A DNA stretch of 57,654 bases from an uncultured Candidatus Saccharibacteria bacterium (GTDB lineage: Bacteria; Patescibacteriota; Minisyncoccia; Phycocordibacterales; CAIZLB01). The stretch is from NCBI GenBank assembly GCA_964368945.1, contig CAYJDM010000007.1, forward strand, positions 1,365-59,018. The letters run 5' to 3'. The position numbers and the translations under genes were made by a program. Below are positions 5,210 to 57,654 of the stretch, piece after piece. The notes beneath the pieces are model-generated. The model saw nothing but the letters and a program-made list of their open reading frames with translations, was not told the origin of the DNA and ran no database searches. Every line of letters begins with the position of its first letter. Position 1 is the stretch's first letter.

Positions 5210-7081
5210 ATGGATCACAGCGGCATCGAAGTAAAAAAGGCAATTAAGGCAGCGGTAGAAGCCGCGGCGTATTCGCTCTATAGCGATCAATTCCTCGCGA
5301 AGCAATATGTGCCAGCAATCAATATTGATCGGCCTGCAGATTCTGCCAAAGGAGACTATTCGACGAATATCGCTCTCGCCGCGGCGAAGGTCGTGGGCAT
5401 CAAGCCTCTCGAGCTTGCCATCGCCATGGTTGCCATCCTCAATGCACCGGAGCAGATTGCCCTCGCTGGAACCATTCTGAAGATCGAGGTTGCAGGTCCC
5501 GGCTTCATCAATTTCTATCTCAAGCCCGAAGTGATTGCGGCTCAGATCAACATCGCCGCACAGGAAAAAAGCGCGACTGATGCGAAGGCTTATGGCCGCA
5601 TCGCAGTTAATGCTGGAAAAAAGATCGCATATGAATATACCGATCCGAATCCTTTCAAGGTTTTTCATATCGGACACCTCGTAGCGAATATGGTAGGGGA
5701 GACATTCTCGAGGCTTGGCGAATACTCCGGAGCGGAGATCAAGCGATTCTGCTATCAGGGAGATCTAGGACGACATGTTGCATTCTTTATTTATGGATTG
5801 CGATTGATGGACAAGCCTTTTCCGACCGAGGACGAAGGCCTCAAGATGTCGCTCGTCGATCGCATGTACTATATGGGCACGTCATATGCCAAGGGCGCTA
5901 CATATTTCAAGCAGAATGCAGAATCGAATCCGGAGCTCGAGACTGAAGTCCAGAATATAAATAAAAAACTCTATGAGCGAAGCGATGAAGAGATCAATGT
6001 CATCTATGATCTCGGCCTCGAATGGAGCCTCGAATATTTCGAGACATTATATGAATTGCTCGGAACGAAGTTCGATCAGTATTTCTTTGAGAGCAAATGC
6101 GTAGAGCCTGCTCGGGCGCTCATTGCCGAAGGCCAGGCTAAGGGAGTTTTTACAGAAAGCGACGGCGCAATTGTATTCGAAGGAGAAAAATTCCAGGATG
6201 AGAAAAGCGGCCCGCTCCATACGCGCGTCTTCATTACCAAATTCGGCCTTCCTACATACGATGCCAAGGAACTCGGTCTCGCCAAGCTCAAATACGATGC
6301 CTTCAATTATGATCGCGGCATCATCATCACTGCAAATGAGCAGGATCAGTATTTCAAGGTGAATCTCAAGGCTCAGGAATTGATGCTGCCACAGATCGTG
6401 GGCAAAAATTTCCATGCTTCTCATGGGATGATGAAGCTTCCTACTGGAAAGATGTCTTCTCGAACAGGCGATGTGGTCTCTGCAGAAGAGATGATTCAGT
6501 CGGCCAAGGATTATGTAATGGGCGTAATGAGGGATCGCGAGATGTCAGATGATGAGAAAAATAAAGCCGCAGGACAGATCGCGGTCGCAGGCATCAAATA
6601 TCTCGTGCTTCGCCAGGCGCCAGGAAAGGACATTGTCTACGATGCCAAAACCGCTCTAGCATTCGATGGCGACTCCGGTCCATATCTCCAGTATGCATGC
6701 GTCCGATCTCGCGCAGTAGTTGCCAAGGCGAAAGAGCAGGGAATTATGCCTGGCGATTTCACCGCAGCCACTATGACGGTTCAGTCTGCTGATCATGATG
6801 TGACGATGACGACGGCTGCGGATCTCGCGCGCAAGGTTTTCACATTTCCAGAAATAATCGAGCGAGCATATGCGGAAAACGGCCCGCATTTCGTGGCGAC
6901 ATATCTCATCGAGCTTGCCGGCATGTTCAATGCCTTTTATGCGAATCAGAAGATCGTGGATCTCACGGATGATGCGAGCAAGGCTTTGTCCGGAGCTTTC
7001 GTCACGCTCGCGGATGCAGTATCTCATACGCTCGCGAACGGGCTTTATGTTCTAGGAATCGAGGTACCGGAGAGGATGTAG
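5210..7081 (+). CDS. argS: Arginine--tRNA ligase
   Basis: N-terminal Arg_tRNA_synt_N-like region, HIGH-type motif FHIGHLV, MSSRTG in place of KMSKS, and a C-terminal anticodon-binding domain ending ...ERM. Confidence 0.9.
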   Translation: MDHSGIEVKKAIKAAVEAAAYSLYSDQFLAKQYVPAINIDRPADSAKGDYSTNIALAAAKVVGIKPLELAIAMVAILNAPEQIALAGTILKIEVAGPGFINFYLKPEVIAAQINIAAQEKSATDAKAYGRIAVNAGKKIAYEYTDPNPFKVFHIGHLVANMVGETFSRLGEYSGAEIKRFCYQGDLGRHVAFFIYGLRLMDKPFPTEDEGLKMSLVDRMYYMGTSYAKGATYFKQNAESNPELETEVQNINKKLYERSDEEINVIYDLGLEWSLEYFETLYELLGTKFDQYFFESKCVEPARALIAEGQAKGVFTESDGAIVFEGEKFQDEKSGPLHTRVFITKFGLPTYDAKELGLAKLKYDAFNYDRGIIITANEQDQYFKVNLKAQELMLPQIVGKNFHASHGMMKLPTGKMSSRTGDVVSAEEMIQSAKDYVMGVMRDREMSDDEKNKAAGQIAVAGIKYLVLRQAPGKDIVYDAKTALAFDGDSGPYLQYACVRSRAVVAKAKEQGIMPGDFTAATMTVQSADHDVTMTTAADLARKVFTFPEIIERAYAENGPHFVATYLIELAGMFNAFYANQKIVDLTDDASKALSGAFVTLADAVSHTLANGLYVLGIEVPERM

Positions 7082-9727: not shown

Positions 9728-9810
9728 GGATTTTGTTTGGGTTGAACTGACTTGACCATATGCTACGCCATTTATGTAAAATTCTCAATCCGTATGCTAG
9801 TATACGATCC

Positions 9811-12800
9811 ATGAAAACTAACCCAAACAATAACGCCAAGGATGCGGCGTTCGAGGACAAAGCAGCTTCAGAATCGCCAAAAAACGCGCCGGAATCAGTA
9901 GAGCAAAAATCTCCGGCAGCCATTCGCGAGGACGAGGTCTTGGCCTTCTGGGACAATGAGCGCATTTTTGAAAAATCGCTTGCCGCTACAAAGAACCCTT
10001 CTGGAGCTGATGGAAAGCCTGGCCAGCCGAGAAAGGATTTCGTCTTTTATGACGGTCCTCCATACGCGACAGGAACTCCGCATTTCGGCCATCTTTTGCC
10101 ATCGACGATCAAGGATGCGATTCCTCGATTCAAGACCATGCAGGGATATTATGTCTCTCGCCGATGGGGCTGGGATTGCCATGGCTTGCCGATCGAGAAC
10201 TTGATAGAAAAAGAACTGGGCCTCGAGGACAAGAAAGCCATCATCGATTATGGCATCGACAAATTCAATAAGGCGGCACGAGACAGCGTCTTTCGATATG
10301 ACCAGGAATGGAAAAAGGTAATTCACCGCGTCGGCCGATGGGTCGATATGGAAAATAATTATCAGACTATGGATTCGAGCTATACCGAATCCGTCTGGTG
10401 GTCTTTCGCGCAATTTTTCAATAAGGGCCTCGTCTACGAAGGATTCAAGACCATGCAGGTTTGTCCGCGATGCGAGACGACGCTCTCCAATTTCGAAGTA
10501 GGGCAGGGATATGCGGATGTGCAGGATATTTCCGTTTATGCGATGTTTCCGCTCAAGAATTCTGCGAATGGCGAGACTGATTACGCTCTCGCATGGACGA
10601 CTACTCCTTGGACTTTGCATGGCAATGCAGGATTGGCAGTTCATCCTGAGCTTTCTTATGTGAAGGTAAAATTGGTCAAAGCCGAGAACCCCGACAATAC
10701 CGGCAAGAATCTCATCCTCGCAGAATCTCGCTTGTCCGCGCTCAAGGAAACAGAAGGCGAGGATTATCAGATCGTAGACAAGTTTACCGGAGCGGAATTC
10801 GCAGAGCGATACTCTGATGGATATTCTCCAGTCTTTGATACATATGAGAAAAATAAATTCCCATTCGAATCGCAGGAAAAATTCCGCGACAATGCCTGGA
10901 AGGTCTGGACTGCTGATTTCGTTACGGCAGACACTGGAACGGGAATCGTGCATATAGCTCCTGCATTCGGAGACGATGACCGCAAGCTCGGAGAGGCCAA
11001 AGGCCTGCCGATGATCCATCATGTCGGCCTCAATGGACATGTCCGTGCGGAGCTCGGCGAGCCTTTTGCAAACAAGATGGTAAAGCCCAAAGACGATCCT
11101 CAGTCATATGATATCGAGGTTATCAAGGCGCTTGCTCATGCCGGCTTCCTGTATGCAAAGGAAAAAATCATTCACTCATATCCGCATTGCTGGAGATGCT
11201 CATATCCTCTCCTCAACTATGGAACATCGGGCTGGTTCATCGAGATGACCAAGCTTCAGCAGAAGATGCTCAGCGAGAATGCCGCAACGAAATGGGTTCC
11301 GGAAGAAATCGGCTCAGGCCGATTCGGCGCATGGCTCGAGAATATCCGCGATTGGAACCTCTCGCGATCCCGATTCTGGGGCGCTCCTTTGCCGGTATGG
11401 CGCGGCGTCGATACGGGCAAGATCCATGTCATCTCTTCGATCGCAGAGCTCAAGTCAAAGATCGAGAAAAGAAATTCATTTACCTTGATGCGGCATGGCG
11501 AAGCAGAATCGAATGTCCTCGGCATCATCAGCGCCAAGGATCTCACGATTCATGGCCTCACGGATCTCGGCCGCAAGCAGGTAGAGGAATCCGTCACCGC
11601 TCTCAAGGCTGCGAAGGAAGCGGCAGGAAAAAAGATAACGAAGATCTATTCTTCTGATTTCCGTCGAACGCGCGAGACTGCCGAAATGGCTGCGGATATG
11701 CTCGGAATACCTCGCGATCAGATCGTTTTTGATCATCGATTGGGCGAATGCGGCGGCGGCAAGCTCGAAGGAAAGAGCTGGGGAGAGCATTGGTCTCTTC
11801 TCTCGACGCCTCGCGATCGCATGTTTACTGCGCCGGAAGAAGCGGAGTGCGTCTTTGATGTGAAAAAGCGAGCGACCGAAGCCGTCTACGATATCGATGC
11901 GCAGAATGAGAACGAGGATATCCTCGTCGTCACTCATGGCCTGCCTTTGCGATTGATCAAATATGCATCGCTCGGACGAACCGCTCGCGATCTCTTGCGA
12001 ACGGGCTGGCAGGATATATCAGATCCGAATGCTTCATTGCATGAGCTCGATTGGAGAAATCTCCCGCATAATGAGACTTGGGAAATCGATATCCATCGAC
12101 CCTATGTCGATCATATCTCATGGGCTGATCCTGAGACAGGGGAGAAGATGGTCCGAATCCCAGAAGTATTCGATGTCTGGTACGATTCCGGCGCCATGCC
12201 TTTTGCCTCGAATCATTATCCATTCGAGCATGAGAATACCGACAATGTCAGCCCGAATACCGTATTCGAAGATACGATTGCCAATGCTCCTGCTTTGCCA
12301 GCTCAGTTCCCGGCGGACTTCATCGCCGAAGGGCTCGATCAGACTCGAGGCTGGTTCTATTCTTTGCTCGCGATCGGCGTGGGCTTATTCGATCAGTCTC
12401 CATACCGGAATGTCATGGTAAACGGCCTCATCCTCGCCGAGGATGGCCGCAAGATGTCCAAGCGCCTCAAGAACTATCCGGATATGTGGCCGACGATCGA
12501 GAAATATGGCGCAGACTCATTGCGATATTTCCTTGCAGCATCTCCATCCGTGCGCGGCGAAGAATTCGCATTCTCAGAAAAAGGCCTCGATGAAGTGAAT
12601 AAGAAGATCTTCAATCGAATCGACAATATGCATTCGTTCCTGATGATGTATGCCGTAGACGAAAAGGCAAAAGAAAAGGGAATGCTTCTCGATCGCGTCT
12701 CGAACAAATATTCCACAGCCGAAATAGATGGCATGCTCGCTGCGCTCAAGCACCCTCTGGATCTCTGGGTTTTGGCTCGGCTCAATCAGACTATCGAGCT

Positions 12801-13662
12801 CGTCACGACGAATCTCGAAGCATACCTTCTCGACAAGGCTACTCGTCCAATCGGCGATCTGATCGACGATGTTTCCACTTGGTATCTTCGACGATCCCGA
12901 GATCGATTCAAGGTTGATTCTCGCGCCGAGGATGCCGTATCTGCAACTGCTGATAGAGACGATGCAATCTTCACATTGCGATATGTTCTCGAGCGTTTGT
13001 CTCGAATCATGGCGCCCGTCACGCCTTTCATGGCTGAGCATCTGTATAAAAAAGTCCGCTTCGGCGATATCGAAAGCGTGCACCTCGAGTCATGGCCTGC
13101 TACTCCATCAATCGATGCTTCTATAATCGAAAGCATGGCGAAGGTTCGCGCATTGGTGGAGATCGGATTGGCAAAGCGCGCGGAAGCCAAGATCAAGGTC
13201 CGCCAGCCGCTCCAATCTTTTACTCATTCTTCTACGGAACTCACCCTTGAGCTCGAAGAAATCATCAAGGATGAATTGAATGTCAAAGAGATCAAGCGAG
13301 TCGAAGGAGGCGATGCCGCGAATGGCTCCGAATCTCTCGACATCGAAATCACTCCAGCCCTCCGCAAGGAAGGCGCCGTGCGAGACCTCATCCGCGCTAT
13401 CCAGCAGGAACGAAAGAATAAGGATCTCAATCCTCAGGACTCCATCGATTTGATCTGTGCGACTACGCCCGAAATCGAGGCCGTCATCAAGGATCATTCG
13501 CAGATGATCGAGCAGGCCGTGCAGGCAAAGGGCATTTCATTTGTCAGCGCAGATGCCGCCAAAGACGATGCGGAGATCTTGTCCGGAACAGCTGTCGACT
13601 TCTTCATGGATGCTGCATTCGATCCTACGACCGATACCGTCCGGTTCATAATCAAGGCATAA
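9811..13662 (+). CDS. ileS: Isoleucine--tRNA ligase with an embedded histidine-phosphatase domain
   Basis: HIGH (PHFGHLL), WDCHGLP, the editing CP1 region, NIRDWNLSRSRFWGAPLP and KMSKRLKN. The ATG at 9811 is preferred over the 9760 track start, which abuts the divergent gene. Confidence 0.9.
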   Translation: MKTNPNNNAKDAAFEDKAASESPKNAPESVEQKSPAAIREDEVLAFWDNERIFEKSLAATKNPSGADGKPGQPRKDFVFYDGPPYATGTPHFGHLLPSTIKDAIPRFKTMQGYYVSRRWGWDCHGLPIENLIEKELGLEDKKAIIDYGIDKFNKAARDSVFRYDQEWKKVIHRVGRWVDMENNYQTMDSSYTESVWWSFAQFFNKGLVYEGFKTMQVCPRCETTLSNFEVGQGYADVQDISVYAMFPLKNSANGETDYALAWTTTPWTLHGNAGLAVHPELSYVKVKLVKAENPDNTGKNLILAESRLSALKETEGEDYQIVDKFTGAEFAERYSDGYSPVFDTYEKNKFPFESQEKFRDNAWKVWTADFVTADTGTGIVHIAPAFGDDDRKLGEAKGLPMIHHVGLNGHVRAELGEPFANKMVKPKDDPQSYDIEVIKALAHAGFLYAKEKIIHSYPHCWRCSYPLLNYGTSGWFIEMTKLQQKMLSENAATKWVPEEIGSGRFGAWLENIRDWNLSRSRFWGAPLPVWRGVDTGKIHVISSIAELKSKIEKRNSFTLMRHGEAESNVLGIISAKDLTIHGLTDLGRKQVEESVTALKAAKEAAGKKITKIYSSDFRRTRETAEMAADMLGIPRDQIVFDHRLGECGGGKLEGKSWGEHWSLLSTPRDRMFTAPEEAECVFDVKKRATEAVYDIDAQNENEDILVVTHGLPLRLIKYASLGRTARDLLRTGWQDISDPNASLHELDWRNLPHNETWEIDIHRPYVDHISWADPETGEKMVRIPEVFDVWYDSGAMPFASNHYPFEHENTDNVSPNTVFEDTIANAPALPAQFPADFIAEGLDQTRGWFYSLLAIGVGLFDQSPYRNVMVNGLILAEDGRKMSKRLKNYPDMWPTIEKYGADSLRYFLAASPSVRGEEFAFSEKGLDEVNKKIFNRIDNMHSFLMMYAVDEKAKEKGMLLDRVSNKYSTAEIDGMLAALKHPLDLWVLARLNQTIELVTTNLEAYLLDKATRPIGDLIDDVSTWYLRRSRDRFKVDSRAEDAVSATADRDDAIFTLRYVLERLSRIMAPVTPFMAEHLYKKVRFGDIESVHLESWPATPSIDASIIESMAKVRALVEIGLAKRAEAKIKVRQPLQSFTHSSTELTLELEEIIKDELNVKEIKRVEGGDAANGSESLDIEITPALRKEGAVRDLIRAIQQERKNKDLNPQDSIDLICATTPEIEAVIKDHSQMIEQAVQAKGISFVSADAAKDDAEILSGTAVDFFMDAAFDPTTDTVRFIIKA
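11470..12085 (+). other. Histidine phosphatase superfamily (PGAM-like, branch 1) domain inserted in IleRS
   Basis: LMRHGEAESN (RHG), SSDFRRTRETA, GECGGGKLEGKSWGE and VVTHGLPLR lie in frame between IleRS blocks ...SSIAELKSKIEK and IDIHRPYVD. Confidence 0.7.
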
Positions 13663-17792: not shown

Positions 17793-17888
17793 CCTGCCGA
17801 TTGCCGACGTTTGGCCCTTCCTTCTGTCTGTTTTTCGCTTTTGTTTTCCCCGATATAATCTGCTACCATGGCTGTAATACATACATAT

Positions 17889-19298
17889 ATGGAAAACATC
17901 ATCGCGCTCTGCAAACGAAAAGGCTTTATCTTCCCAGGATCTGAGATCTATGGAGGCCTTTCGGGCACATGGGATTACGGTCCGCTCGGAGTCGCTCTCA
18001 AGAACAATATCAAGAACCTATGGTGGAAGCGCTTCGTCACTGATCGCGAGGATATGTTCGGCGTCGATGCGGCGATCCTCATGAATCAGAATGTCTGGAA
18101 GGCGAGCGGGCATGTCGCGGGATTTTCTGATCCGCTCGTCGTCGATGCAAAGACGCAGAAGAGATATCGAGCTGATCATTTGCTTGAAGAGTCAGGTGTG
18201 GATGTAAAAGGCATGACGCTCGATGCCATGGATGCCAAGATAAAAGAGCTCGGACTCAAGAGCCCAGAAGGCAATCCGCTCGGCGATGTCCGACAATTCA
18301 ATATGATGTTCAAGACGCATATCGGTCCGGTCGCTGATGATGATTCCATTTCGTACTTGCGACCCGAGACTGCGCAGGGCATGTTCGTCAATTTCAAAAA
18401 CGTCCTCGACTCTATGCATCCAAAGATTCCATTCGGTCTCGCCCAGATCGGAAAGGCTTTTCGAAATGAGATCGCCCCTCGAGACTTTATCTTCCGCGAC
18501 CGGGAGCTCGAGCAGATGGAAATCGAATACTTCGTGCACCCCGATAACTGGAAGGAGACATTCGATGGTTTTTTCAATGAGCAAATGGAATTCGCCAAGG
18601 ATCTCGGCCTCGATATGTCGCATGTTCACAAGGTTGATATTGCTGCAGAAGATCGCGCGCATTATTCAAGCTGTTCAGTCGATACAGAATTTGATTTTCC
18701 TTTTGGCCAAAAAGAGCTCTTCGGCCTCGCATATCGAACCGACTATGACCTCAATAAGCATATCGAGCATTCCAAAGTCGATCTCAGCTATTTCGATGAC
18801 GAGACAAAGACGCGATATGTGCCGCATTGCATCGAGCCTACATTCGGCGTCGAGCGAACCATGCTTGCCGTCCTCAGCGATGCGTATACCGTAGACGAAC
18901 TCGGCGGAGAGAAGCGAGAATATCTCAAGCTTTCTCCAAAGATCGCGCCGGTCCTCGTATCCGTTTCGCCACTCCTCAAAAATAAGCCCGAGCTCGTCAG
19001 CATCGCCCGATCTCTCTATGCCGACCTCAAAAAGAAATTTGGCCGCGTCACATTCGACGACAATGGAAATATCGGCAAGCGATATCGACGACAGGATGAA
19101 ATCGGTACGCCATTCTGCGTAGTCATTGATTTCGAAACCATGGAAGGCGTCAAAGAGGCCGTTCATGCCAAGGACAGCTCTGCTGCAATCGCAGTCGGCG
19201 CAACTGATACCGTCACGATTCGATATCGAGATAGCGGAGAGCAGGAGAGGGTCGCTATTGCTGATTTGGCGAGCAAGATCGAGGGGTTGATCGCATAA
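17889..19298 (+). CDS. glyQS: Glycine--tRNA ligase (dimeric class II GlyQS type)
   Basis: IIALCKRKGFIFPGSEIYGGLSGTWDYGPLG, class II motifs (FRNEISPR-like FRNEIAPRD) and a C-terminal anticodon-binding domain. Confidence 0.9.
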   Translation: MENIIALCKRKGFIFPGSEIYGGLSGTWDYGPLGVALKNNIKNLWWKRFVTDREDMFGVDAAILMNQNVWKASGHVAGFSDPLVVDAKTQKRYRADHLLEESGVDVKGMTLDAMDAKIKELGLKSPEGNPLGDVRQFNMMFKTHIGPVADDDSISYLRPETAQGMFVNFKNVLDSMHPKIPFGLAQIGKAFRNEIAPRDFIFRDRELEQMEIEYFVHPDNWKETFDGFFNEQMEFAKDLGLDMSHVHKVDIAAEDRAHYSSCSVDTEFDFPFGQKELFGLAYRTDYDLNKHIEHSKVDLSYFDDETKTRYVPHCIEPTFGVERTMLAVLSDAYTVDELGGEKREYLKLSPKIAPVLVSVSPLLKNKPELVSIARSLYADLKKKFGRVTFDDNGNIGKRYRRQDEIGTPFCVVIDFETMEGVKEAVHAKDSSAAIAVGATDTVTIRYRDSGEQERVAIADLASKIEGLIA

Positions 19299-21642: not shown

Positions 21643-21732
21643 CTTTAAAAAAGCCTTCTTTTGGGCTACTATATGCAATACGCAGCTGATCGCCGGCCAG
21701 GAGGAAAGGGTCGAAAATCATGCGCCATAACT

Positions 21733-23199
21733 ATGAAAAACAAACCTTTTTATATAACGACGACCCTGCCATACGTGAATGCGGAGGCGCATATGGGCCA
21801 TGCCTTGGAATTCATCCAGGCCGACTACATTGCGAGGCATAAGGCCATGCAGGGGCATGAGGTTTTTTTCAATACGGGAACTGACGAGCACGGCCTTAAG
21901 ATCTATCAGAAAGCGCTCGAAGCCGGACTTTCGCCGAAGGATTATGTCGATGGCTATGCGGAAAAATTCAAGGCATTGAAGCCGATCCTGAACTTGAGCT
22001 TTACGCATTTCATCCGGACAACTGATACAAATCATATCGAGGCTGCGCAGGAATTCTGGAAGCGATGCGCGCAGAATGTGGATGCGGACGGGAAGTCGGA
22101 TGTCTATAAGGGAGAATACGATGCGAAGTACTGCGTCGGCTGCGAACTGGAAAAGTCAGAGTCGGAGCTCGTCGATGGCAAATGCCCGATTCATCCGAAT
22201 AATGAGATCCAGATCATCAAGGAGGAAAATTATTTCTTCAGATGGTCTCGCTATCAGCAGGCTTTGCTCGATTTGTATCGCGATCGACCAGATTTCGTCG
22301 TACCTGAAGGCCGATTGAATGAGATCCGCACATTTGTCGAAGGCGGCTTGAGGGATTTCAGCATTTCGCGAAAGAAGGACAAGATGCCTTGGGGCGTTCC
22401 TGTTCCAGGCGATGATGAGCATGTCATGTATGTCTGGTTCGATGCTCTCGTGAATTATATTTCGACGACTGGCTGGCCGAACGAAGGAGCGGATTCTGAT
22501 TTCGCGAAATTCTGGCCAGGCATGCAGGTTGCGGGCAAGGACAATCTCCGACAGCAGTCAGCGATGTGGCAAGCGATGCTTATGTCAGCAAAGCTTCCTG
22601 CATCTTCGCAGATTTTCATCCACGGCTTCATTACGAGCGGAGGACAGAAGATGAGCAAATCGATCGGCAATGTCATCAATCCGCTCGATGTGGTCAATGA
22701 ATTCGGCATTGATGCCTTGCGATATTTCCTCGCTCATCAGCTTCCCGCATATGAGGATGGGGACTTTACGATGGAGCGGTTCAAGGAGGCATACAATACG
22801 CAGCTCGCTAATGGAATCGGAAATCTCACAAGCCGAATTCTCAAGATGGCGGTTTCGTATGAGGTTTCCTTCGAAGGAATTAATAGCGATCTTGCTGGGA
22901 AAGCGGAGCTTTTCAATAAGCTTGAGGCGCCTTTCGCGCGTTTCAATTTCGCCGAGGCGTCAGATGTGGTCTGGAAGAGGATCGGCGAGCTGGATGTTTT
23001 TATCCAAGAAAATGCTCCATTCAAGAAAATAAAAGTCGATGCCGATGCAGCCAAGAAAGACGTGCGATATCTGCTCGAAGAATTGTACAAGGTCGCATAT
23101 GCGCTCGCTCCATTCATGCCTGAGACTTCGGAGAAGGTGATTGCATTACTCGAGGCGGGGACATTCCCTGAGACGCCGCTTTTCTTGCGACGAGACTAA
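21733..23199 (+). CDS. metG: Methionine--tRNA ligase (short form)
   Basis: FYITTTLPYVNAEAHMGHA (HIGH), Zn-knuckle CVGCE...CPIH, and KMSKSIGN. The ATG at 21733 is preferred. Confidence 0.9.
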   Translation: MKNKPFYITTTLPYVNAEAHMGHALEFIQADYIARHKAMQGHEVFFNTGTDEHGLKIYQKALEAGLSPKDYVDGYAEKFKALKPILNLSFTHFIRTTDTNHIEAAQEFWKRCAQNVDADGKSDVYKGEYDAKYCVGCELEKSESELVDGKCPIHPNNEIQIIKEENYFFRWSRYQQALLDLYRDRPDFVVPEGRLNEIRTFVEGGLRDFSISRKKDKMPWGVPVPGDDEHVMYVWFDALVNYISTTGWPNEGADSDFAKFWPGMQVAGKDNLRQQSAMWQAMLMSAKLPASSQIFIHGFITSGGQKMSKSIGNVINPLDVVNEFGIDALRYFLAHQLPAYEDGDFTMERFKEAYNTQLANGIGNLTSRILKMAVSYEVSFEGINSDLAGKAELFNKLEAPFARFNFAEASDVVWKRIGELDVFIQENAPFKKIKVDADAAKKDVRYLLEELYKVAYALAPFMPETSEKVIALLEAGTFPETPLFLRRD

Positions 23200-27125: not shown

Positions 27126-29141
27126 ATGGCCTCACAAGAAGAAATAAAAGAAGTGCGACTGGCAAAGCTCCAAAAGCTCGAATCTCTGGGCATAGAAGCC
27201 TATCCGATTTCCGTTCGCAAGGATTATGATTTCGTTGATTTGCGACAGAAATTCGATGAGCTTGAGCCTGCCGCCAAAGAGATTGCGGTTACCGGCCGAA
27301 TCATGTCATTGCGAGGGCAGGGCGGCTTGATCTTCTGCGACCTTTTCGATGGTACTGGCATGTTCCAGGCAATCATCAAGAAGGATGAGCCTTTGGTCTA
27401 TATTCAGAGCGCTCAGGATGGAGAAAAAGTTACGGGTCTCGATGAGACTATAGCGCATCCCAATGTGGCCGATGCTTTCGATCTATTCCAGGAAACTGCC
27501 GATATCGGAGATTTCTTGGAGGTTCGAGGCATGCTTATGAGGACAAAAAGAGGCGAGATGAGCATTTCGGCTTCTGCTTGGCGCATCATTACGAAGTCCA
27601 TGCGAGCCCTTCCGGAAAAATGGGCCGGCTTGCAGGATGTGGAAGAACGATATCGACGCCGATATCTCGATGTCCTTACGAATGAGGAGGTTCGAAACTC
27701 TTTTATCCTGCGAACAAAGACAGTCTCATTGATCCGCCGATTTTTCGATGATCATGGATATTTGGAGGTGGAATTGCCGATCTTGCAGGCCCTGGCCGGC
27801 GGAGCGACAGCTGCCGTATTCAAGACGCATCACAATGCGCTCGATCTTGATTTCAATCTTACGATCGCGCAGGAATTGTTTTTGAAAAAACTAGTTGTCG
27901 GCGGATTCAACAAGGTCTATGAAATGGGCCGACGCTTCCGAAATGAGGGAATCGATGTGACGCATAACCCTGAATTCACCATGCTTGAATCTCAGGAGGT
28001 ATATGCCGATGCGAAATCTCAGCGGCAATTCATTCAGGAACTCGTTCAGTTTTTAGTAAAAGAAATCTTCGGCAAGGATTCATTCGAATATAATGGCAAT
28101 ACTATCGACGTCTCGAAGCCATTCGAGGTAAAGCCTTTCCTCGAGCTCATCTCTGAGACGATCGGCGTGCAGAATCTGCGCGAATATTCACGAGAGGATC
28201 TCGTCGCTTTGGCTGAAAAGCATGGCGCTGATATCGAGGCTGCAGACGAATTCGAAAAGATCGTCGACAAGATTTATAAGAAAGCCATCCGACCGAATCT
28301 CATCCAGCCGGTTTTCCTCATCAATTATCCTGTAGAATTCAATCCTTTTGCCAAGCGTCGAGAGGATGACAAGATGCTCATTGACCGATTCCAGCTCGTC
28401 ATGGGCGGTCTCGAAGTGACGAATTGCTTTTCTGAGCTCAATAATCCCGTAGATCAGAAGCTTCGATATGAGGAGCAGGATCGCAAGAAGCGAAAGGGCG
28501 ATGGCGAAATCTCTCCAAGCGACCTCGACTATCTCGAAGCGATGGAATATGGCATGCCGCCTAATGGGGGAATCGGCATCGGCATCGACCGAATCATCAT
28601 GCTTTTCATGAATACAAAGAATATCAAGGATGCCATTCTTTTCCCTACGATGCGACCGGAGGACGGTTCTGCCGCGAATGCTGCTGGCAATTCGTCAGCG
28701 GGTGCTGCGAAATTGGCGAAAGAAAATCGCTATGCAGCAGTCATTCTCAATGGAGGTGCTGACATGCAGCAATGGCAAAAGCTCAATACGGTAGGGCACT
28801 TAACTGCCGCTTTCGGACATCGAACTGATCAGAAATTGTTTTATCAGGACAAAATCCATACTGCTGATGAGCAGGAAATCTTCCTCAATATCAAGCATGC
28901 CATCATGATAAAGGAAGCGAAAAGCAATGCGGAAATGAAGAAAATCATACATGCCGCATTGCTCGCCGGTCTCGAAGTCGCAGAATTCACTCGAGAAATG
29001 ATCGAGACGACGAATGATAAGAAAGTCATTGAGGCAACAAAGCAGAAGGGCTTTGCTGAGGTGGAGCATCTCGGCGTGCTTGTCTTCGGTCCAAAGAGCA
29101 AGGTTGATGAGGTTACGGAGGGAACGGAGCTGGCTGGTTGA
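27126..29141 (+). CDS. lysS: Lysine--tRNA ligase (class II) fused to a C-terminal DUF2000-like domain
   Basis: OB anticodon-binding N-domain, class II motifs (FRNEGID, GGIGIGIDRIIM) and the normal LysRS end ...LFPTMRPE, followed by a linker and about 140 extra residues. Confidence 0.9.
   Translation: MASQEEIKEVRLAKLQKLESLGIEAYPISVRKDYDFVDLRQKFDELEPAAKEIAVTGRIMSLRGQGGLIFCDLFDGTGMFQAIIKKDEPLVYIQSAQDGEKVTGLDETIAHPNVADAFDLFQETADIGDFLEVRGMLMRTKRGEMSISASAWRIITKSMRALPEKWAGLQDVEERYRRRYLDVLTNEEVRNSFILRTKTVSLIRRFFDDHGYLEVELPILQALAGGATAAVFKTHHNALDLDFNLTIAQELFLKKLVVGGFNKVYEMGRRFRNEGIDVTHNPEFTMLESQEVYADAKSQRQFIQELVQFLVKEIFGKDSFEYNGNTIDVSKPFEVKPFLELISETIGVQNLREYSREDLVALAEKHGADIEAADEFEKIVDKIYKKAIRPNLIQPVFLINYPVEFNPFAKRREDDKMLIDRFQLVMGGLEVTNCFSELNNPVDQKLRYEEQDRKKRKGDGEISPSDLDYLEAMEYGMPPNGGIGIGIDRIIMLFMNTKNIKDAILFPTMRPEDGSAANAAGNSSAGAAKLAKENRYAAVILNGGADMQQWQKLNTVGHLTAAFGHRTDQKLFYQDKIHTADEQEIFLNIKHAIMIKEAKSNAEMKKIIHAALLAGLEVAEFTREMIETTNDKKVIEATKQKGFAEVEHLGVLVFGPKSKVDEVTEGTELAG
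28728..29138 (+). other. DUF2000-like (PTH2-fold-like) C-terminal module of LysRS
   Basis: AAVILNGGADMQQWQKLNTVGHLTAAFG ... HLGVLVFGPKSKVDEVTEGTEL matches my memory of DUF2000 proteins (..AVWQKLNVTAFL.. / ..VGIAL.G..K.VDK.TKG..L). Confidence 0.55.
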
Positions 29142-29888
29142 TCATAGTCCCACTGTAGACCTTGATTCTTTTATCTTTGGAGGTAATATTTCGAATATCA
29201 GCTCGCCGATCATCGTATAAACAGTTTTGTCAAAGAATTTCTCAAGAATTTCTGTGCTGGTTGAAATTTCGAGTTTGATCTTTTTCCTGAGAGACCTTAA
29301 CTCATTCTCCTTCAATCGCGCCATCAGTTCAAATTCATCTGCGATAGAGCTTAGGGCGTGTATTTGATCCATTTTTGAGCTACTGAAACGCCGGTCATGA
29401 ACATGCGCTCCTCTGATTTTTACCATTGACTCGAGGGACTCATTTATGGCTTTTTTGGTGATAGCAACTATTTTTTCTTGTTCGTGAAGACTTTTTTTCC
29501 GACATTTACTCACGACAAAATCAAATAGCCGGTTTGTCCTGAGTTTAAAAATATAGAGTTCATTAAGATAATACTCATAGTGATATTTAATATAATCAAG
29601 CTCAGATATCTTCTTGGGTCCGTTCTTGTTTGAAATGAATTCGATGCAGAGCTTGAGCCTTGATAGGGACTCGTGTATTTCAACATATCGGTTGAATATG
29701 CAAAAAATATAATCTCTTCGTTGAGAGGGTCGATAGAGTGACCCTTCTTTGTCTGGCTTAGATTCTCCCATTAGTCCCGCAAATACTCTCTCTTGCAGTA
29801 ACTTGCGCTTCTTGGCATCTTTTGGGATTTTCATATAAGGTACGATCTCCTTATTCATTCTTTTTGAAAATGTATCAATTTTTTTCAT
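29142..29888 (-). CDS. AT-rich orphan, all-alpha protein with an HEPN-like Rx4H motif
   Basis: 248-aa ORF, markedly AT-rich by eye. KIRGAHVHDRRF is encoded at 29387-29420. TGA stop directly abuts the lysS TGA stop. Confidence 0.45.
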   Translation of the reverse strand: MKKIDTFSKRMNKEIVPYMKIPKDAKKRKLLQERVFAGLMGESKPDKEGSLYRPSQRRDYIFCIFNRYVEIHESLSRLKLCIEFISNKNGPKKISELDYIKYHYEYYLNELYIFKLRTNRLFDFVVSKCRKKSLHEQEKIVAITKKAINESLESMVKIRGAHVHDRRFSSSKMDQIHALSSIADEFELMARLKENELRSLRKKIKLEISTSTEILEKFFDKTVYTMIGELIFEILPPKIKESRSTVGL

Positions 29889-45080: not shown

Positions 45081-46028
45081 GGCGTCTATTCCGAATACAT
45101 TATGCGAACTAACTCAAGAAAGCGGTCATCTTAAATGAAGCCTCTCAAGGTTGCATATTAAGAAGACCGCTCGAAAGGCGGCATCTTTTTTTCCAAAAAG
45201 ATAACGCTGAGAAAAGCGCAGAGTCCGAGTTCGGAGATTCCTTGAAATCAAAAACCTGTCCTGACATTTCAGTGAAGCGATTCATGTCGAAAGATATGAG
45301 TTGTTTGTATCTGGGTCTTTAGTCGGAGGCAGAGTCATTAGATTGGGCGAGAAGCCGAGCGAGAACTTCAACTGTCACAAGGTTGAGAGGTCGAGCATCT
45401 AATGACAAGCCACCGTATTCCTTCAAGTAAAAATACGGTGGTGCAGGTAACAAATAAAAGTGATTGTGGTCTTTATATTTCCTAATGGGATTTATAAGGG
45501 CATATGGTGGATGCCTTGGCATAACACAGCGATGAAGGACGTAGCATGGCGACGATATGCTTCGGGGAGGTGCCTAGCAACCTTTGATCCGAAGATTTCC
45601 GAATGGGGAAACCCCAGGGACATGAGCCCTGATCTAGTTTCATCTAGATGCGAACCCGGAGAAGTAAAACATTTCAGTAACCGGAGGAAAAGAAAACAAG
45701 CACGCAAGTGCACAATTCTCTAAGTAGCGGCGAGCGAAAAGGGAAGAGCCCAAACCAAGCTTTCCTATGGACGGTGACAATGGCTACGCAAGTAGCTGAT
45801 GTTTCTGTCTATTGGGTAGCTTGGGGTTGTAGGATAGAAACTGGACATTTATGTTCAAAGAGTTACAAAATGCTTCGTTAGCAGAATAAGCTGGAAAGCT
45901 TAACCCAAGACGGTGATAGTCCCGTAAGCGAAAACGAAGTATCTCTTGTTTCTACTCCTGAGTACCCCGAGACATGAATAGCTCGGGGGAATCCAGCAGT
46001 ACTAACTGCTAAGGCTAAATATGTGTTA

Positions 46029-46069
<41 letters not shown>

Positions 46070-47468
46070 AAGTCCGGTGAGGACAGTGAAATAGACCTGA
46101 AACCATATGCCTACAAGGAGTCGGAGCGGTAATTTATTACCGTCACGGCGTGCCTATTGAAGAATGAGCCAACGAGTTAATGAATACTGCGCGGCTAAGC
46201 CCGAGAGGGTGGAGCCATAGGGAAACCGAGTGCGAATAGCGCGTTTGTAGTATGCATTAGACCCGAAGCCAATGCGAGCTTACCATGAGCAGGGTGAACT
46301 ATGTCGAAAGATGTAGGGAGGCCCGAACCCGTTAGTCGTTCAACTCTTTGGGATGACTTGTGGTAAGAAGTGAAAAGCTAATCGAGCTTGGTAATAGCTG
46401 GTTCTCTCCGAAATAGCTTTTGGGTTAGCGTCACGTGTTCCCTCTGGGGGTAGAGCACTGGAAGGACTTGACAGGGAGAAATCTCGCAAGTCCTATCAAA
46501 CTCCGAATACCAGAGGTCAAGAACGTGGCAGTTAGACCGTGGGGGCGAAGCTCCACTGGTCAAAAGGGAAACAGCCCTTGATCCCAATTTAAGGTCCCTA
46601 AATTCATGCTAAGTGCAAAAGAAGGTGGTGGAATTTCATAGACAATGAGGAGGTTTGCTTAGAAGCAGCAATCCTTGAAAGATAGCGTAACAGCTCACTC
46701 ATCAAGAGACTTCGCGCCACAAATGATCGGGGCTCAAGCATAGTACCGAAATTTGGGATTTATATATTCTTCGGAATATATGAGTGGTAGGAGAGTGTTT
46801 GCATCGCGTTGAAGGGAAAGGGGTGACCCATCCTGGAGCATTGCAAAGCAAGAATGTTGGCACAAGTAACCACAATCGATGTGAAAAACATCGACGCCGA
46901 AAGATCAAGGTTTCCTCAGCTACGATTGTCGACTGAGGGTTAGTCAGGCCTAAGGGGATGGAGAGATCCGAACCCGATGGACACATGGTTAATATTCCAT
47001 GACTTTCGTATAGAATGATGGAGTGACGGAGTGGAGTATGTAGAACAGGTTATTGAATTCCTGTTTGTGTAGAGAGATAGTTGACTAGGCAAATCCGGTC
47101 ACTGACTTTAATGTCGATATCTGATTCTATATGACGTGAGTCTACAAAGCACGCTTCCGAGAAAACCTTCTAAGTTTATCTATACGAAAACTGTACCGCA
47201 AACCGACACAGGTGATCAGGTCGAGCAGACCAAGGCGAACGAGTGAGAGGTCTTCAAGGAACTCGGCAAAAAAGCAACCGTAACTTAGGGATAAGGTTCG
47301 CCCACAGCAATGTGGGTCTCAGCAAAAGTTTCTCTGGCGACTGTTTATCAAAAACACAGCTCCCTGCGAAGTCGCAAGACGATGTATAGGGGGTGACACC
47401 TGACCAATGCCAGAAGGTTAAATATCGGCGTTCTTATAGCAATATAAGGGTGACTGATATATGCCCTG

Positions 47469-47503
<35 letters not shown>

Positions 47504-47739
47504 TCAGCACTCATCGCAAGATGATTGCTGACGGACTAGGACTGTCATAGTAGTGTTTTGAGAAAACTAAAGAGTCGAATCGTAAAGATTTAAATTACAC
47601 ATTAAGTAGCTACCTACTGTGCAGTAATGCATCAGTTAGTCCAATATGGTTAGCGAGAGACCAACGCCATACATCCCAACTTTGCGATCGCAAGATCATG
47701 AAGAGGATGAAGATAGAGTCCTTCTGAGAGGAATAGAAG
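47504..47739 (+). other. 236-nt ORF-less intron-like insertion at the 23S site equivalent to E. coli U1931
   Basis: Interrupts ...ACGGTCCTAAGGT | AGCGAAATTCCTTGTC.... It follows a U and ends in G. It has GNRA-capped hairpins and AAGATAGAGTCC near its 3' end. Confidence 0.6.
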
Positions 47740-48402
47740 AGCGAAATTCCTTGTCTGGTAAGTTCAGACGCGCACGAATGGTGTAACGAGTTGGGAACTG
47801 TCTCGGAGACTTGCCCGGTGAAAATGCAATGGAGGTGAAGATGCCTCCTACCTGCAGCTAGACGAAAAGACCCCAGAAGCTTCACTGCAACCTGATATTG
47901 AGTGTATGTTTTTGCTGCGTAGCATAGATGGGAGAGGTTGAGATTTCGGTTTCGGCTGAAATGGACTCGTCAGTGAAATACCATTCTTCAAAAATATACA
48001 TTCTAACCTCGACGGCATAAAAACGTCGAGAAACAGTGTCTGGTGGGCAGTTTTAGTGGGGCGCTATCCTCCCAAAAAGTAACGGAGGAGTTTAAAGGTC
48101 AGCTAGGTGCGAATGGAAACCGTACCGATAGCGCAATGGCATAAGCTGGCTTAACTGTGAGACGTCAATGTCAAACAGACGCGAAAGCGGAACATAGTGA
48201 ACCGACCATACGCATTAGATGCGGTGGAAGATTATCTGATAAAAGCTACTCTGGGGATAACAGGCTGGTTGTATCTAAGAGTCCATATCGACGATACAGT
48301 TCGGCACCTCGATGTCGGCTCGACTTATCCTGGGGCTGTAGAAGGTCCCAAGGGTTTGGCTGTTCGCCAATTAAAAAGTCACGCGAGCTGGGTTCAGACC
48401 GT

Positions 48403-48762
48403 GTAGTAGTTAATCGCAAGATTTACTTCTACACAGTCTGAATCCTCGAGAGATTCATAAGTTTACAAGTCTAAGTAAACAAAAGATGTTAGACGAAAAC
48501 CAAATTCGATTCTTGTCCGAGTAGGACTAAGAACATACGAATATTCACGGCGGTCATTTGGAGAAATCCATTTTGATCAAGTTAACTAATTTCGGTAAAA
48601 TCCCAATGCCTCTGCGCGAGTACGCATGGACAATACCGAGGGAAGTTCAGGCGAAAGCATGAACGCCCGTAGAGACTACACGTTAACTATCTTCATTCAT
48701 GATTCAAATTATGAAAAAGATAATGATATAGTCCATTCCATGCAGTAATGCATGAAAAGAAG
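48403..48762 (+). other. 360-nt ORF-less group-I-like intron at the 23S site equivalent to E. coli U2593
   Basis: Interrupts ...GGGTTCAGACCGT | CGTGAGACAGGTTGG.... It follows a U and ends in G. It carries an R-like element GTAGAGACTACA (48669-48680) and an S-like element GATATAGTCC (48725-48734). Confidence 0.65.
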
Positions 48763-49167
48763 CGTGAGACAGGTTGGTCTCCTATCTGCTGCAGGCGTTG
48801 ATACTTGAGAAGATTTGCCCTTAGTACGAGAGGACCGGGGTGAACTAACCTCTGGTGTACCAGTTGTCATGCCAATGGCATTGCTGGGTAGCTATGTTGG
48901 GAATGGATAAGCTCTGAAAGCATCTAAGAGCGAAGCCAGCTTCAAGATTAGGTATCGTTTGAGGCCCGTGAGAGATGATCACGTTGATAGGCACCAAGTG
49001 TAAGCGCAGTAATGCGTTGAGCTGAGGTGTACTAATGCGCCGATTCCTATTAGGAAATATATTGATGACGATCACTTTTATTTGTTACGTGCATGATTAA
49101 AATACTTGAATCAAATCGCTGTAAAAGGCTTATTTGATATAAAAAAGACCAACCGAATTGACTCTTC

Positions 49168-49280
49168 TGTTCTGGTGACTTGTCGATGGGGAAACACCTG
49201 ATCTCATTCCGAACTCAGAAGTTAAGCCCATCAGAGGCGATGATACTCATTTATGGGGAAAGTAGCTCGTCGCCAGTACA
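49168..49280 (+). rRNA. rrf: 5S rRNA
   Basis: ...CCTGATCTCATTCCGAACTCAGAAGTTAAGCCCATCAG...GTAGCTCGTCGCCAG. Ends are approximate. Confidence 0.85.
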
Positions 49281-57594: not shown

Positions 57595-57654
57595 TATAAT
57601 TAGAGTTTGATCCTAGCTCAGGATGAACGCTGGCGGCGTGGATAAGGCATGCAA
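57595..57654 (+). rRNA. rrs: 16S rRNA, 5' end only (runs off the window)
   Basis: AGAGTTTGATCCTAGCTCAGGATGAACGCTGGCGGCGTG. Confidence 0.85.

Follow-up and report, generated by a model that had tools for sequence, protein, structure and literature searches.

A class II lysyl-tRNA synthetase (LysRS) that carries a DUF2000 domain as a C-terminal extension of the same open reading frame (ORF) is encoded in the DNA analysed here, a 57,654-nucleotide (nt) contig stretch of an uncultured Candidatus Saccharibacteria bacterium (CAYJDM010000007.1, GCA_964368945.1), hereafter called the window. The gene occupies positions 27126..29141 of the + strand and specifies 671 amino acids (aa) plus the stop codon, as established from the ORF list and from Pfam and NCBIfam matches. 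Many Patescibacteria and some DPANN archaea keep this architecture under purifying selection, yet its presence is optional. Profile and structure comparisons indicate that the added domain is distantly homologous to peptidyl-tRNA hydrolase 2 (PTH2) and that this relationship goes beyond the shared fold. We propose, with a probability of roughly 0.4, that incorrect esters at the 3′ terminus of synthetase-bound tRNA(Lys) are the target of the tethered domain, and that it would act on them with a catalytic set other than that of PTH2.

In the 671-aa ORF, the Pfam domains follow each other in the order tRNA_anti-codon, tRNA-synt_2 and DUF2000. The synthetase part comprises an OB-fold anticodon-binding domain (aa 54-155, 27285..27590, + strand; PF01336, 40 bits), whose match stretches over 102 aa for a profile of only 75 positions, and a class II catalytic domain (aa 172-512, 27639..28661, + strand), which PF00152 covers over aa 172-509 with 256 bits. 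Motif 2 (FRNEG...HNPEFT) and motif 3 (GIGIGIDR) of the catalytic domain could be read from the translation, and the columns of both are invariant in the alignment of relatives (A3). Additionally, an insertion of about 27 aa (EPLVYIQSAQDGEKVTGLDETIAHPNV...) was observed within the anticodon domain at approximately aa 88-114 (nt 27387..27467), which is missing from most relatives, so that these align to the LysRS of the window as residues 1-87 plus 114-512. Both NCBIfam lysS models matched above their trusted cut-offs, TIGR00499 with 496.3 bits (cut-off 427.6), where aa 5-512 correspond to positions 3-495 of a 496-position model, and NF001756 with 551.9 bits (cut-off 468) and a match that extends up to aa 512. 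Because the lysS models align end to end, the LysRS body terminates at E512 (nt 28661), that is, after ...ILFPTMRPE, as an earlier interpretation made from the letters and translations of the window (the sequence-only reading) had stated. The start coordinate given in that reading, 28640, is one base out of frame, since the codon of F506 begins at 28641. Judging from its sequence, the LysRS part is a complete and apparently functional class II enzyme.

Downstream of E512, the ORF continues through a poorly conserved, A/G/S-rich linker of 24 aa (DGSAANAAGNSSAGAAKLAKENRY, aa 513-536, 28662..28733, + strand); this linker and all peptide strings quoted in the sequence-only reading are present in the ORF. 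In the full-length model, which reached an overall predicted template modelling score (pTM) of 0.68, the LysRS body and the DUF2000 module were both well folded, with values of the predicted local distance difference test (pLDDT) of 32-39 for residues 511-532. Since the linker falls below 50 between two folded modules, it is regarded as a flexible tether, with no confident docking of one module onto the other. The linkers of 79 relatives measure 11-34 aa (median 15) and are K/E/S/G-rich, in frame and variable. The domain that follows the linker in the window (aa 537-671, 28734..29138, + strand) adopts a PTH2-like alpha/beta fold according to its AlphaFold2 model and to Foldseek. Its assignment to DUF2000 in the sequence-only reading was confirmed by a PF09391 match of 68.2-71.3 bits (cut-off 25; E = 9e-19 to 9.5e-20), in which aa 539-669 cover profile positions 5-131 of 133.

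Three conserved segments characterise the domain. The motif WQKLNTVGHL on helix alpha-1 (aa 550-559, 28773..28802, + strand), identified from conservation tables and hhalign, contains N554 and H558, which are conserved in all DUF2000 proteins (the counterpart of H558 is, however, F in Atu0240 itself, the classical member from Agrobacterium tumefaciens), as well as W550, which is invariant in the fused type. The motif FTREMIETTNDKKV (aa 621-634, 28986..29027, + strand), recognised by the same two means, lies at the position of the catalytic DAGxT loop of PTH2 and includes the family-wide residues F621, M625 and D631 together with E624, invariant in the fused type. Finally, the strand-helix-strand segment LGVLVFG...VDEVT....L (aa 649-669, 29070..29132, + strand) stands out by its family-wide conservation and its hhalign columns, and its residues G650, G655, T664 and L669 are common to the DUF2000 domain and the C-terminal 'G.GP...D..TG.LKL' region of PTH2. 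These four residues and N554, H558, F621, M625 and D631 are kept in the fused sequences and in 38 stand-alone ones, and the fused subfamily additionally holds W550, D581, L587-N588, A592, E624 and K641 invariant. When profiles of fused and stand-alone DUF2000 were aligned by hhalign, a probability of 100% was obtained (E = 6e-39). Placed by topology, the conserved polar residues lie on helix alpha-1 and on the loop and helix after strand 4, which is where the PTH2 active site forms.

The structural relationship to PTH2 that the sequence-only reading had suggested was borne out by structure and profile comparisons. With the AlphaFold2 model of aa 533-671 (pLDDT 88.7, pTM 0.80) as the query, the top Foldseek match in the PDB was 2GAX (E = 1e-11, template modelling (TM) scores of 0.79/0.81, root-mean-square deviation 3.0), and the 12 remaining significant matches were all PTH2 chains (E = 1.3e-5 to 3.5e-4, target-normalised TM scores of 0.63-0.76) from entries 2ZV3, 1Q7S, 1RLK, 1WN2, 3ERJ and 1XTY; below significance, the list continued with further weak PTH2 chains and then noise. 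A phmmer search of the PDB with the isolated domain returned nothing significant, and a profile search reached the sequence of 2GAX at E = 1.7e-4. Furthermore, hhalign aligned the DUF2000 profile, built from fused and stand-alone sequences, with a profile of five PTH2 structures over the full length at a probability of 92-93% (E = 1e-7 to 5e-7), and the alignment was identical in three alignment modes. The shared features include a His on helix alpha-1 (H558, equivalent to H25 of PTH2), paired Gly residues in the last central strand and the '..T....L' pattern near the C-terminus. Membership of the PTH2 family itself was ruled out by the absence of a PF01981 match, by the replacement of the residues reported as catalytic and by a non-basic isoelectric point (pI), all detailed below; the domain is a DUF2000 member within the PTH2-like superfamily and no PTH2 enzyme.

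That two genes had been joined by a sequencing or assembly error, or by a chimeric contig, is an explanation to which we assign next to no probability. Some database fragments with DUF2000 pieces do look chimeric, namely P0034, with MutL/LigA-BRCT pieces, and P0035, with a DEAD helicase; both are short metagenomic proteins that hold internal pieces of fused-type DUF2000 and could pass for new architectures, and they were left unused as such. However, the identical 671-aa protein was found on contigs independently assembled from runs ERR4405439 and ERR4405440. Moreover, when one genome per GTDB species was scanned, 99 species with the domain were recovered, and among the 80 loci fetched and examined, which come from different studies, almost all displayed a single uninterrupted LysRS-DUF2000 frame; the exceptions were genes cut at contig ends, Gracilibacteria and Peribacteria genes that need genetic code 25, and the loci L026 and L059, which are anomalous. 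The linker is in frame and variable throughout, and the protein sequence of the domain is conserved. An error at the junction, which the sequence-only reading had itself considered, is thus excluded by the survey of 80 loci and the identity between the two runs.

In an exhaustive profile search of 1.84 billion representative proteins, only 256 DUF2000 proteins were found, of which the long ones are nearly all LysRS fusions. The fusion occurs in Patescibacteria, including Paceibacterota, Doudna-, Nomura-, Wolfe-, Gracili-, Peri- and Dojkabacteria and others, and in metagenome-assembled genomes (MAGs) labelled as DPANN (loci L020, L038, L060, L062, L065, L076 and L077, from Nanoarchaeota, Aenigmarchaeota and Woesearchaeota). 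At least two of these DPANN-labelled MAGs have archaeal-looking flanks, with a Rad51/RadB-type recombinase gene in one (L060) and a TrmY-type methyltransferase gene (PF04013) in the other (L038), and the presence of the fusion in such a setting therefore suggests its transfer between bacteria of the Candidate Phyla Radiation (CPR) and DPANN archaea.

Of the 120 LysRS proteins closest to that of the window in their core, 32 (632-696 aa) carry the domain and 88 (480-542 aa) lack it, and LysRS proteins that are 76-81% identical in the core to that of the window stop a few residues past FPTMKPE. When sequences were selected by the similarity of their LysRS core, pairwise identity averaged 73% for the core, 57% for the anticodon domain, 58% for DUF2000 and 35% for the linker. 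Since DUF2000 and the anticodon domain show practically the same value, the added domain is under purifying selection like that on a functional LysRS domain, and not under a stronger one. A previous estimate that ranked the conservation of the domain above that of the catalytic core (54.7% versus 46.5%) was withdrawn, because the loci used for it had been picked through domain motifs. Apparent stand-alone proteins of the fused type were likewise reassessed: P0040, P0042, P0046, P0050 and P0052 are truncated gene calls whose first residue is the Met in the 'FP.M(K/R)P' tail of LysRS, and P0061 was rejected as a free gene, given that its frame stays open upstream as far as the end of the contig and encodes a linker-like peptide there. 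A true stand-alone gene related to the fused type is P0081, which has in-frame stops upstream.

Some relatives carry further modules on the same C-terminus (proteins P0057, P0097, P0037, P0038 and P0056; loci L026, L028, L031 and L072). In P0057, an AlaX-M-like editing domain with intact HxxxH/CxxxH zinc motifs follows DUF2000 (NCBIfam AlaXM, E = 3e-36), and in P0097 (locus L084) a B3/4 editing domain of the type found in phenylalanyl-tRNA synthetase (PheRS) is placed between LysRS and DUF2000, an arrangement present on contigs of 55 kb and 281 kb. In other LysRS-DUF2000 proteins, a tail of approximately 200 aa contains an HD/HDIG domain (motif GLLHD[IL]D[WY]) whose nearest solved relatives are YqeK-type hydrolases of diadenosine tetraphosphate (Ap4A; E = 3.7e-5). 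By similarity, all three kinds of module are predicted hydrolases of synthetase products.

LysRS enzymes of class II form homodimers, and the DUF2000 domain could act in cis, as the sequence-only reading had suggested, or across the dimer, on the 3′ acceptor end of the tRNA(Lys) that LysRS holds. The tRNA would be recruited by LysRS and not by DUF2000, which, because the domain is acidic, would not recruit tRNA itself. PTH2 enzymes, the only characterised homologues, hydrolyse the ester bond that links an N-blocked aminoacyl group to tRNA and work as homodimers (PMC11994314); as the synthetase is also homodimeric, two copies of the domain would come together in the fusion. Two kinds of substrate can be envisaged. 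One consists of non-cognate aminoacyl groups on tRNA(Lys), whose hydrolysis would amount to post-transfer editing. Only active-site pre-transfer editing is described for class II LysRS, other bacteria use trans factors to clear tRNA that LysRS has mischarged with Ser or Thr, and a review lists no post-transfer editing domain for this enzyme (PMC7373986). The other option comprises N-blocked or peptidyl groups, whose hydrolysis would rescue tRNA(Lys) for immediate recharging. According to the title of Heurgue-Hamard 1996, as cited in PMC9973355, Pth-deficient E. coli is limited by starvation for Lys-tRNA(Lys), so that it would be physiologically reasonable for LysRS to carry a rescue activity for peptidyl-tRNA(Lys). 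With an E. coli Pth sequence as the probe, no Pth1 was found in the window or in the flanks of the 80 loci, a result that concerns these regions and not whole genomes. In either case, catalysis would have to proceed without the Lys, Asp and Thr of PTH2 and may rely on another polar set at the same topological site, formed by the helix alpha-1 residues N554 and H558 together with E624/M625 and D631 of the loop that follows strand 4. The covalent link to the synthetase, a single ORF with a flexible tether, is what would be expected for an editing domain; LysRS is the fusion partner in nearly every DUF2000 fusion found, and the AlaX-M-like and B3/4 co-fusions would indirectly favour a tRNA-directed role of DUF2000.

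Several observations weigh against a hydrolytic role on tRNA(Lys). To our knowledge, no activity has been described for any DUF2000 protein. PF01981 (PTH2), which the sequence-only reading had named beside PF09391, gave no match at E ≤ 1 with either the whole protein or the isolated domain. Residues K18 (in GKGK), D86 and T90 (both in DAGxT) of Sulfolobus solfataricus Pth2 are reportedly catalytic, in work attributed to Fromant et al. 2005, and this numbering is consistent with the 1XTY sequence; in the hhalign alignment they fall opposite Q551, T628 and K632, and are thus replaced. The placement of gaps around FTREM is uncertain, but no placement sets an Asp against D86. The fused domains are acidic to neutral, with a median pI of 6.4 (5.87 in the window) versus 9.3 for the five PTH2 structures. 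The domain is also dispensable, as the 88 of 120 nearest LysRS proteins without it indicate, and the downstream DNA of domain-less close relatives contains neither a remnant of the domain nor a separate DUF2000 gene nearby. Around the true stand-alone genes (P0081, P0088, P0099 and P0100) there is no lysS and no recurrent translation gene, so that a separate DUF2000 gene adjoining lysS, an arrangement that the sequence-only reading had envisaged for relatives, was encountered in neither setting. Finally, classical stand-alone DUF2000 was inspected in seven plasmid or megaplasmid loci (L085-L088 and L094-L096, from Ralstonia, Pantoea, Vibrio, Streptomyces, Thioclava, Paracoccus and Alteromonas). 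An AraC-type regulator immediately precedes or adjoins it in five of the seven, and a LysE, DMT or MFS transporter adjoins it in four, sometimes with an adjacent amidase or aminotransferase, and none of the seven loci has a translation gene next to it. The location of classical DUF2000 in AraC/exporter cassettes therefore weakens a tRNA role for the family as a whole; this context is compatible with the handling of amino acids or their analogues and does not require tRNA. P0147 (568 aa), the only non-LysRS DUF2000 architecture without a chimeric look, points the same way, being a fatty-acid desaturase (PF00487) fused to a classical-type DUF2000 (110 bits).

The same observations can be accommodated by other explanations. 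The domain could be a non-catalytic module that retains the PTH2-like fold without its chemistry and that holds the acceptor end, senses an amino acid or another ligand to modulate LysRS, or mediates dimer or partner contacts. Such a role, which we consider unlikely, would fit the loss of all three PTH2 residues reported as catalytic, the missing PF01981 signal and the optional nature of the domain, and the company of AraC regulators and exporters kept by classical DUF2000 fits ligand binding. However, N554, H558, E624, D631, K641, N588 and D581 are invariant over a very deep divergence, which resembles a catalytic or specific binding site more than a scaffold; an acidic surface speaks against unspecific RNA binding, and the modules co-fused in relatives are all of hydrolase type. 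Hydrolysis of a substrate other than tRNA, tied to lysine or LysRS chemistry, appears quite unlikely to us; candidates would be adenylates or dinucleotides formed as by-products, or esters or amides of amino-acid analogues that resemble lysine or are toxic, and the whole DUF2000 family would then handle small molecules and LysRS would merely be their local source. The cassettes of AraC, LysE/DMT/MFS exporter and DUF2000, some with an adjacent amidase or aminotransferase, the desaturase fusion, the acidic surface and the recurrent LysRS-DUF2000-HD arrangement, whose HD part is nearest to YqeK Ap4A hydrolases, agree with this idea, which nevertheless has to face the facts that the only characterised homologues, PTH2, act on tRNA esters (PMC11994314), that nearly all fusions have LysRS in particular as the partner, and that the AlaX-M and B3/4 co-fusions suggest tRNA substrates.

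It is highly improbable, in our estimation, that the domain is an aminoacyl-tRNA-dependent transferase that passes lysine from fresh Lys-tRNA(Lys) to a lipid, a cell-wall precursor or a peptide. The precedent for this logic is LysX, in which LysRS is fused to the MprF lysyl-phosphatidylglycerol synthase, a consumer of Lys-tRNA. A PTH2-like pocket with changed catalytic residues could favour aminolysis over hydrolysis, and P0147 illustrates that classical DUF2000 can be fused to a membrane enzyme, but the protein of the window has neither transferase homology nor a membrane segment, no conserved acceptor-pathway neighbour was found in the window or the loci, and no transferase with the DUF2000 fold is known. 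A bolder statement, that the domain is either a new PTH2-fold enzyme that lysylates a lipid, cell-wall or peptide acceptor from Lys-tRNA(Lys) or an enzyme devoted to rescuing peptidyl-tRNA(Lys) by means of a new Asn/His/Asp set, which would couple the recycling of tRNA(Lys) directly to its recharging, is judged improbable; if one of its two alternatives were true, it would be the first function for DUF2000 and a translation-linked activity common to CPR bacteria and DPANN archaea.

If the proposed action on tRNA(Lys) is correct, the domain would represent the first LysRS editing domain, or a built-in device for the rescue of tRNA(Lys), which limits the growth of Pth-deficient E. coli when it is trapped as peptidyl-tRNA, in many episymbiotic bacteria and archaea. 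The fusion gives DUF2000 a testable substrate hypothesis, tRNA(Lys), and a set of candidate residues, N554, H558, E624 and D631. Additionally, the AlaX-M-like, B3/4 and HD additions suggest that organisms with reduced genomes consolidate translation quality control onto their synthetases. In the databases, the fusion proteins are named 'lysine--tRNA ligase' or 'DUF2000 family protein'. Our literature search returned no paper that mentions DUF2000, PF09391, Atu0240 or IPR018988 and, with CPR aminoacyl-tRNA synthetase (aaRS) editing included, no description of a LysRS-DUF2000 fusion. A hydrolase-like module appended to a synthetase is already known as a kind; what is new is a module of the PTH2 superfamily on LysRS across CPR bacteria and DPANN archaea.

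Five aaRS genes are found in the 57 kb of the window: besides lysS, they are those of ArgRS (5210..7081), an IleRS-like enzyme (9760..13662, + strand), a class IIa synthetase with an HGTP anticodon domain (17868..19298) and MetRS (21661..23199). The IleRS-like class I synthetase (1300 aa) is composed of tRNA-synt_1, Anticodon_1 and a DUF5915 tail, and a His_Phos_1 domain (PF00300, 97.5 bits) that keeps the catalytic motifs 'RHGE' and 'THG' is inserted in its catalytic-domain region at aa 575-766 (approximately nt 11482..12057). LysRS is accordingly the second synthetase of the window with a hydrolase-type addition, as the sequence-only reading had pointed out. A 248-aa ORF with no Pfam match (29142..29888, − strand) converges on lysS with zero intergenic bases, so that the stop codons abut, and this pair is kept on the independent contigs L092 and L093, where efp and recA follow. 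ARAGORN detected no tRNA genes in the window. The 23S rRNA gene (45481..49056) measures 3576 nt for a 2925-nt model and harbours a group I intron (48504..48755; RF00028, 62.6 bits); it is followed by the 5S rRNA gene (49171..49278), and a 16S rRNA gene starts at the end of the window (57595..57654). Since the latter begins approximately 8 kb downstream of the 5S rRNA gene, the rRNA genes are unlinked and their order is unusual.

Compared with known systems, the domain of the window stands closest in fold to two families. The structure 2GAX, of Atu0240, is the only one solved for a DUF2000 protein and has been available since 2006. The window domain shares its fold and Pfam model (PF09391) with Atu0240 and is only about 20% identical to it, and it is fused to LysRS, whereas classical DUF2000 is a free protein of about 135-145 aa encoded in AraC/exporter cassettes. 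The PTH2 enzymes (human Bit1, 1Q7S; S. solfataricus, 1XTY; Methanocaldococcus jannaschii, 2ZV3) form the only solved non-DUF2000 family that was matched. The window domain has the same fold but lacks their GKGK and DAGxT motifs, possesses an extra beta-hairpin (approximately aa 574-588) and an extra helix (aa 631-639), and is tethered to a synthetase, while PTH2 is free.

In its architecture, the fusion follows the same logic as the aaRS editing modules, appended or free-standing (AlaX and its AlaRS/ThrRS counterparts, B3/4 of PheRS, INS/YbaK/ProXp of ProRS, and DTD), with a hydrolase brought beside the synthetase active site by a tether, and it has in common with them a patchy, dispensable distribution, although the DUF2000 fold is unrelated to that of any of these modules. 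LysX offers the other parallel. Its NF002821 model aligns to the LysRS part of the window protein with 454 bits, far below the LysX cut-off of 742, and both proteins join a class II LysRS to a partner module that would take the tRNA product of the synthetase as its target or substrate. They differ in the nature of this partner, which is a membrane transferase at the N-terminus in LysX and a soluble module with a PTH2-like fold at the C-terminus in the protein of the window.

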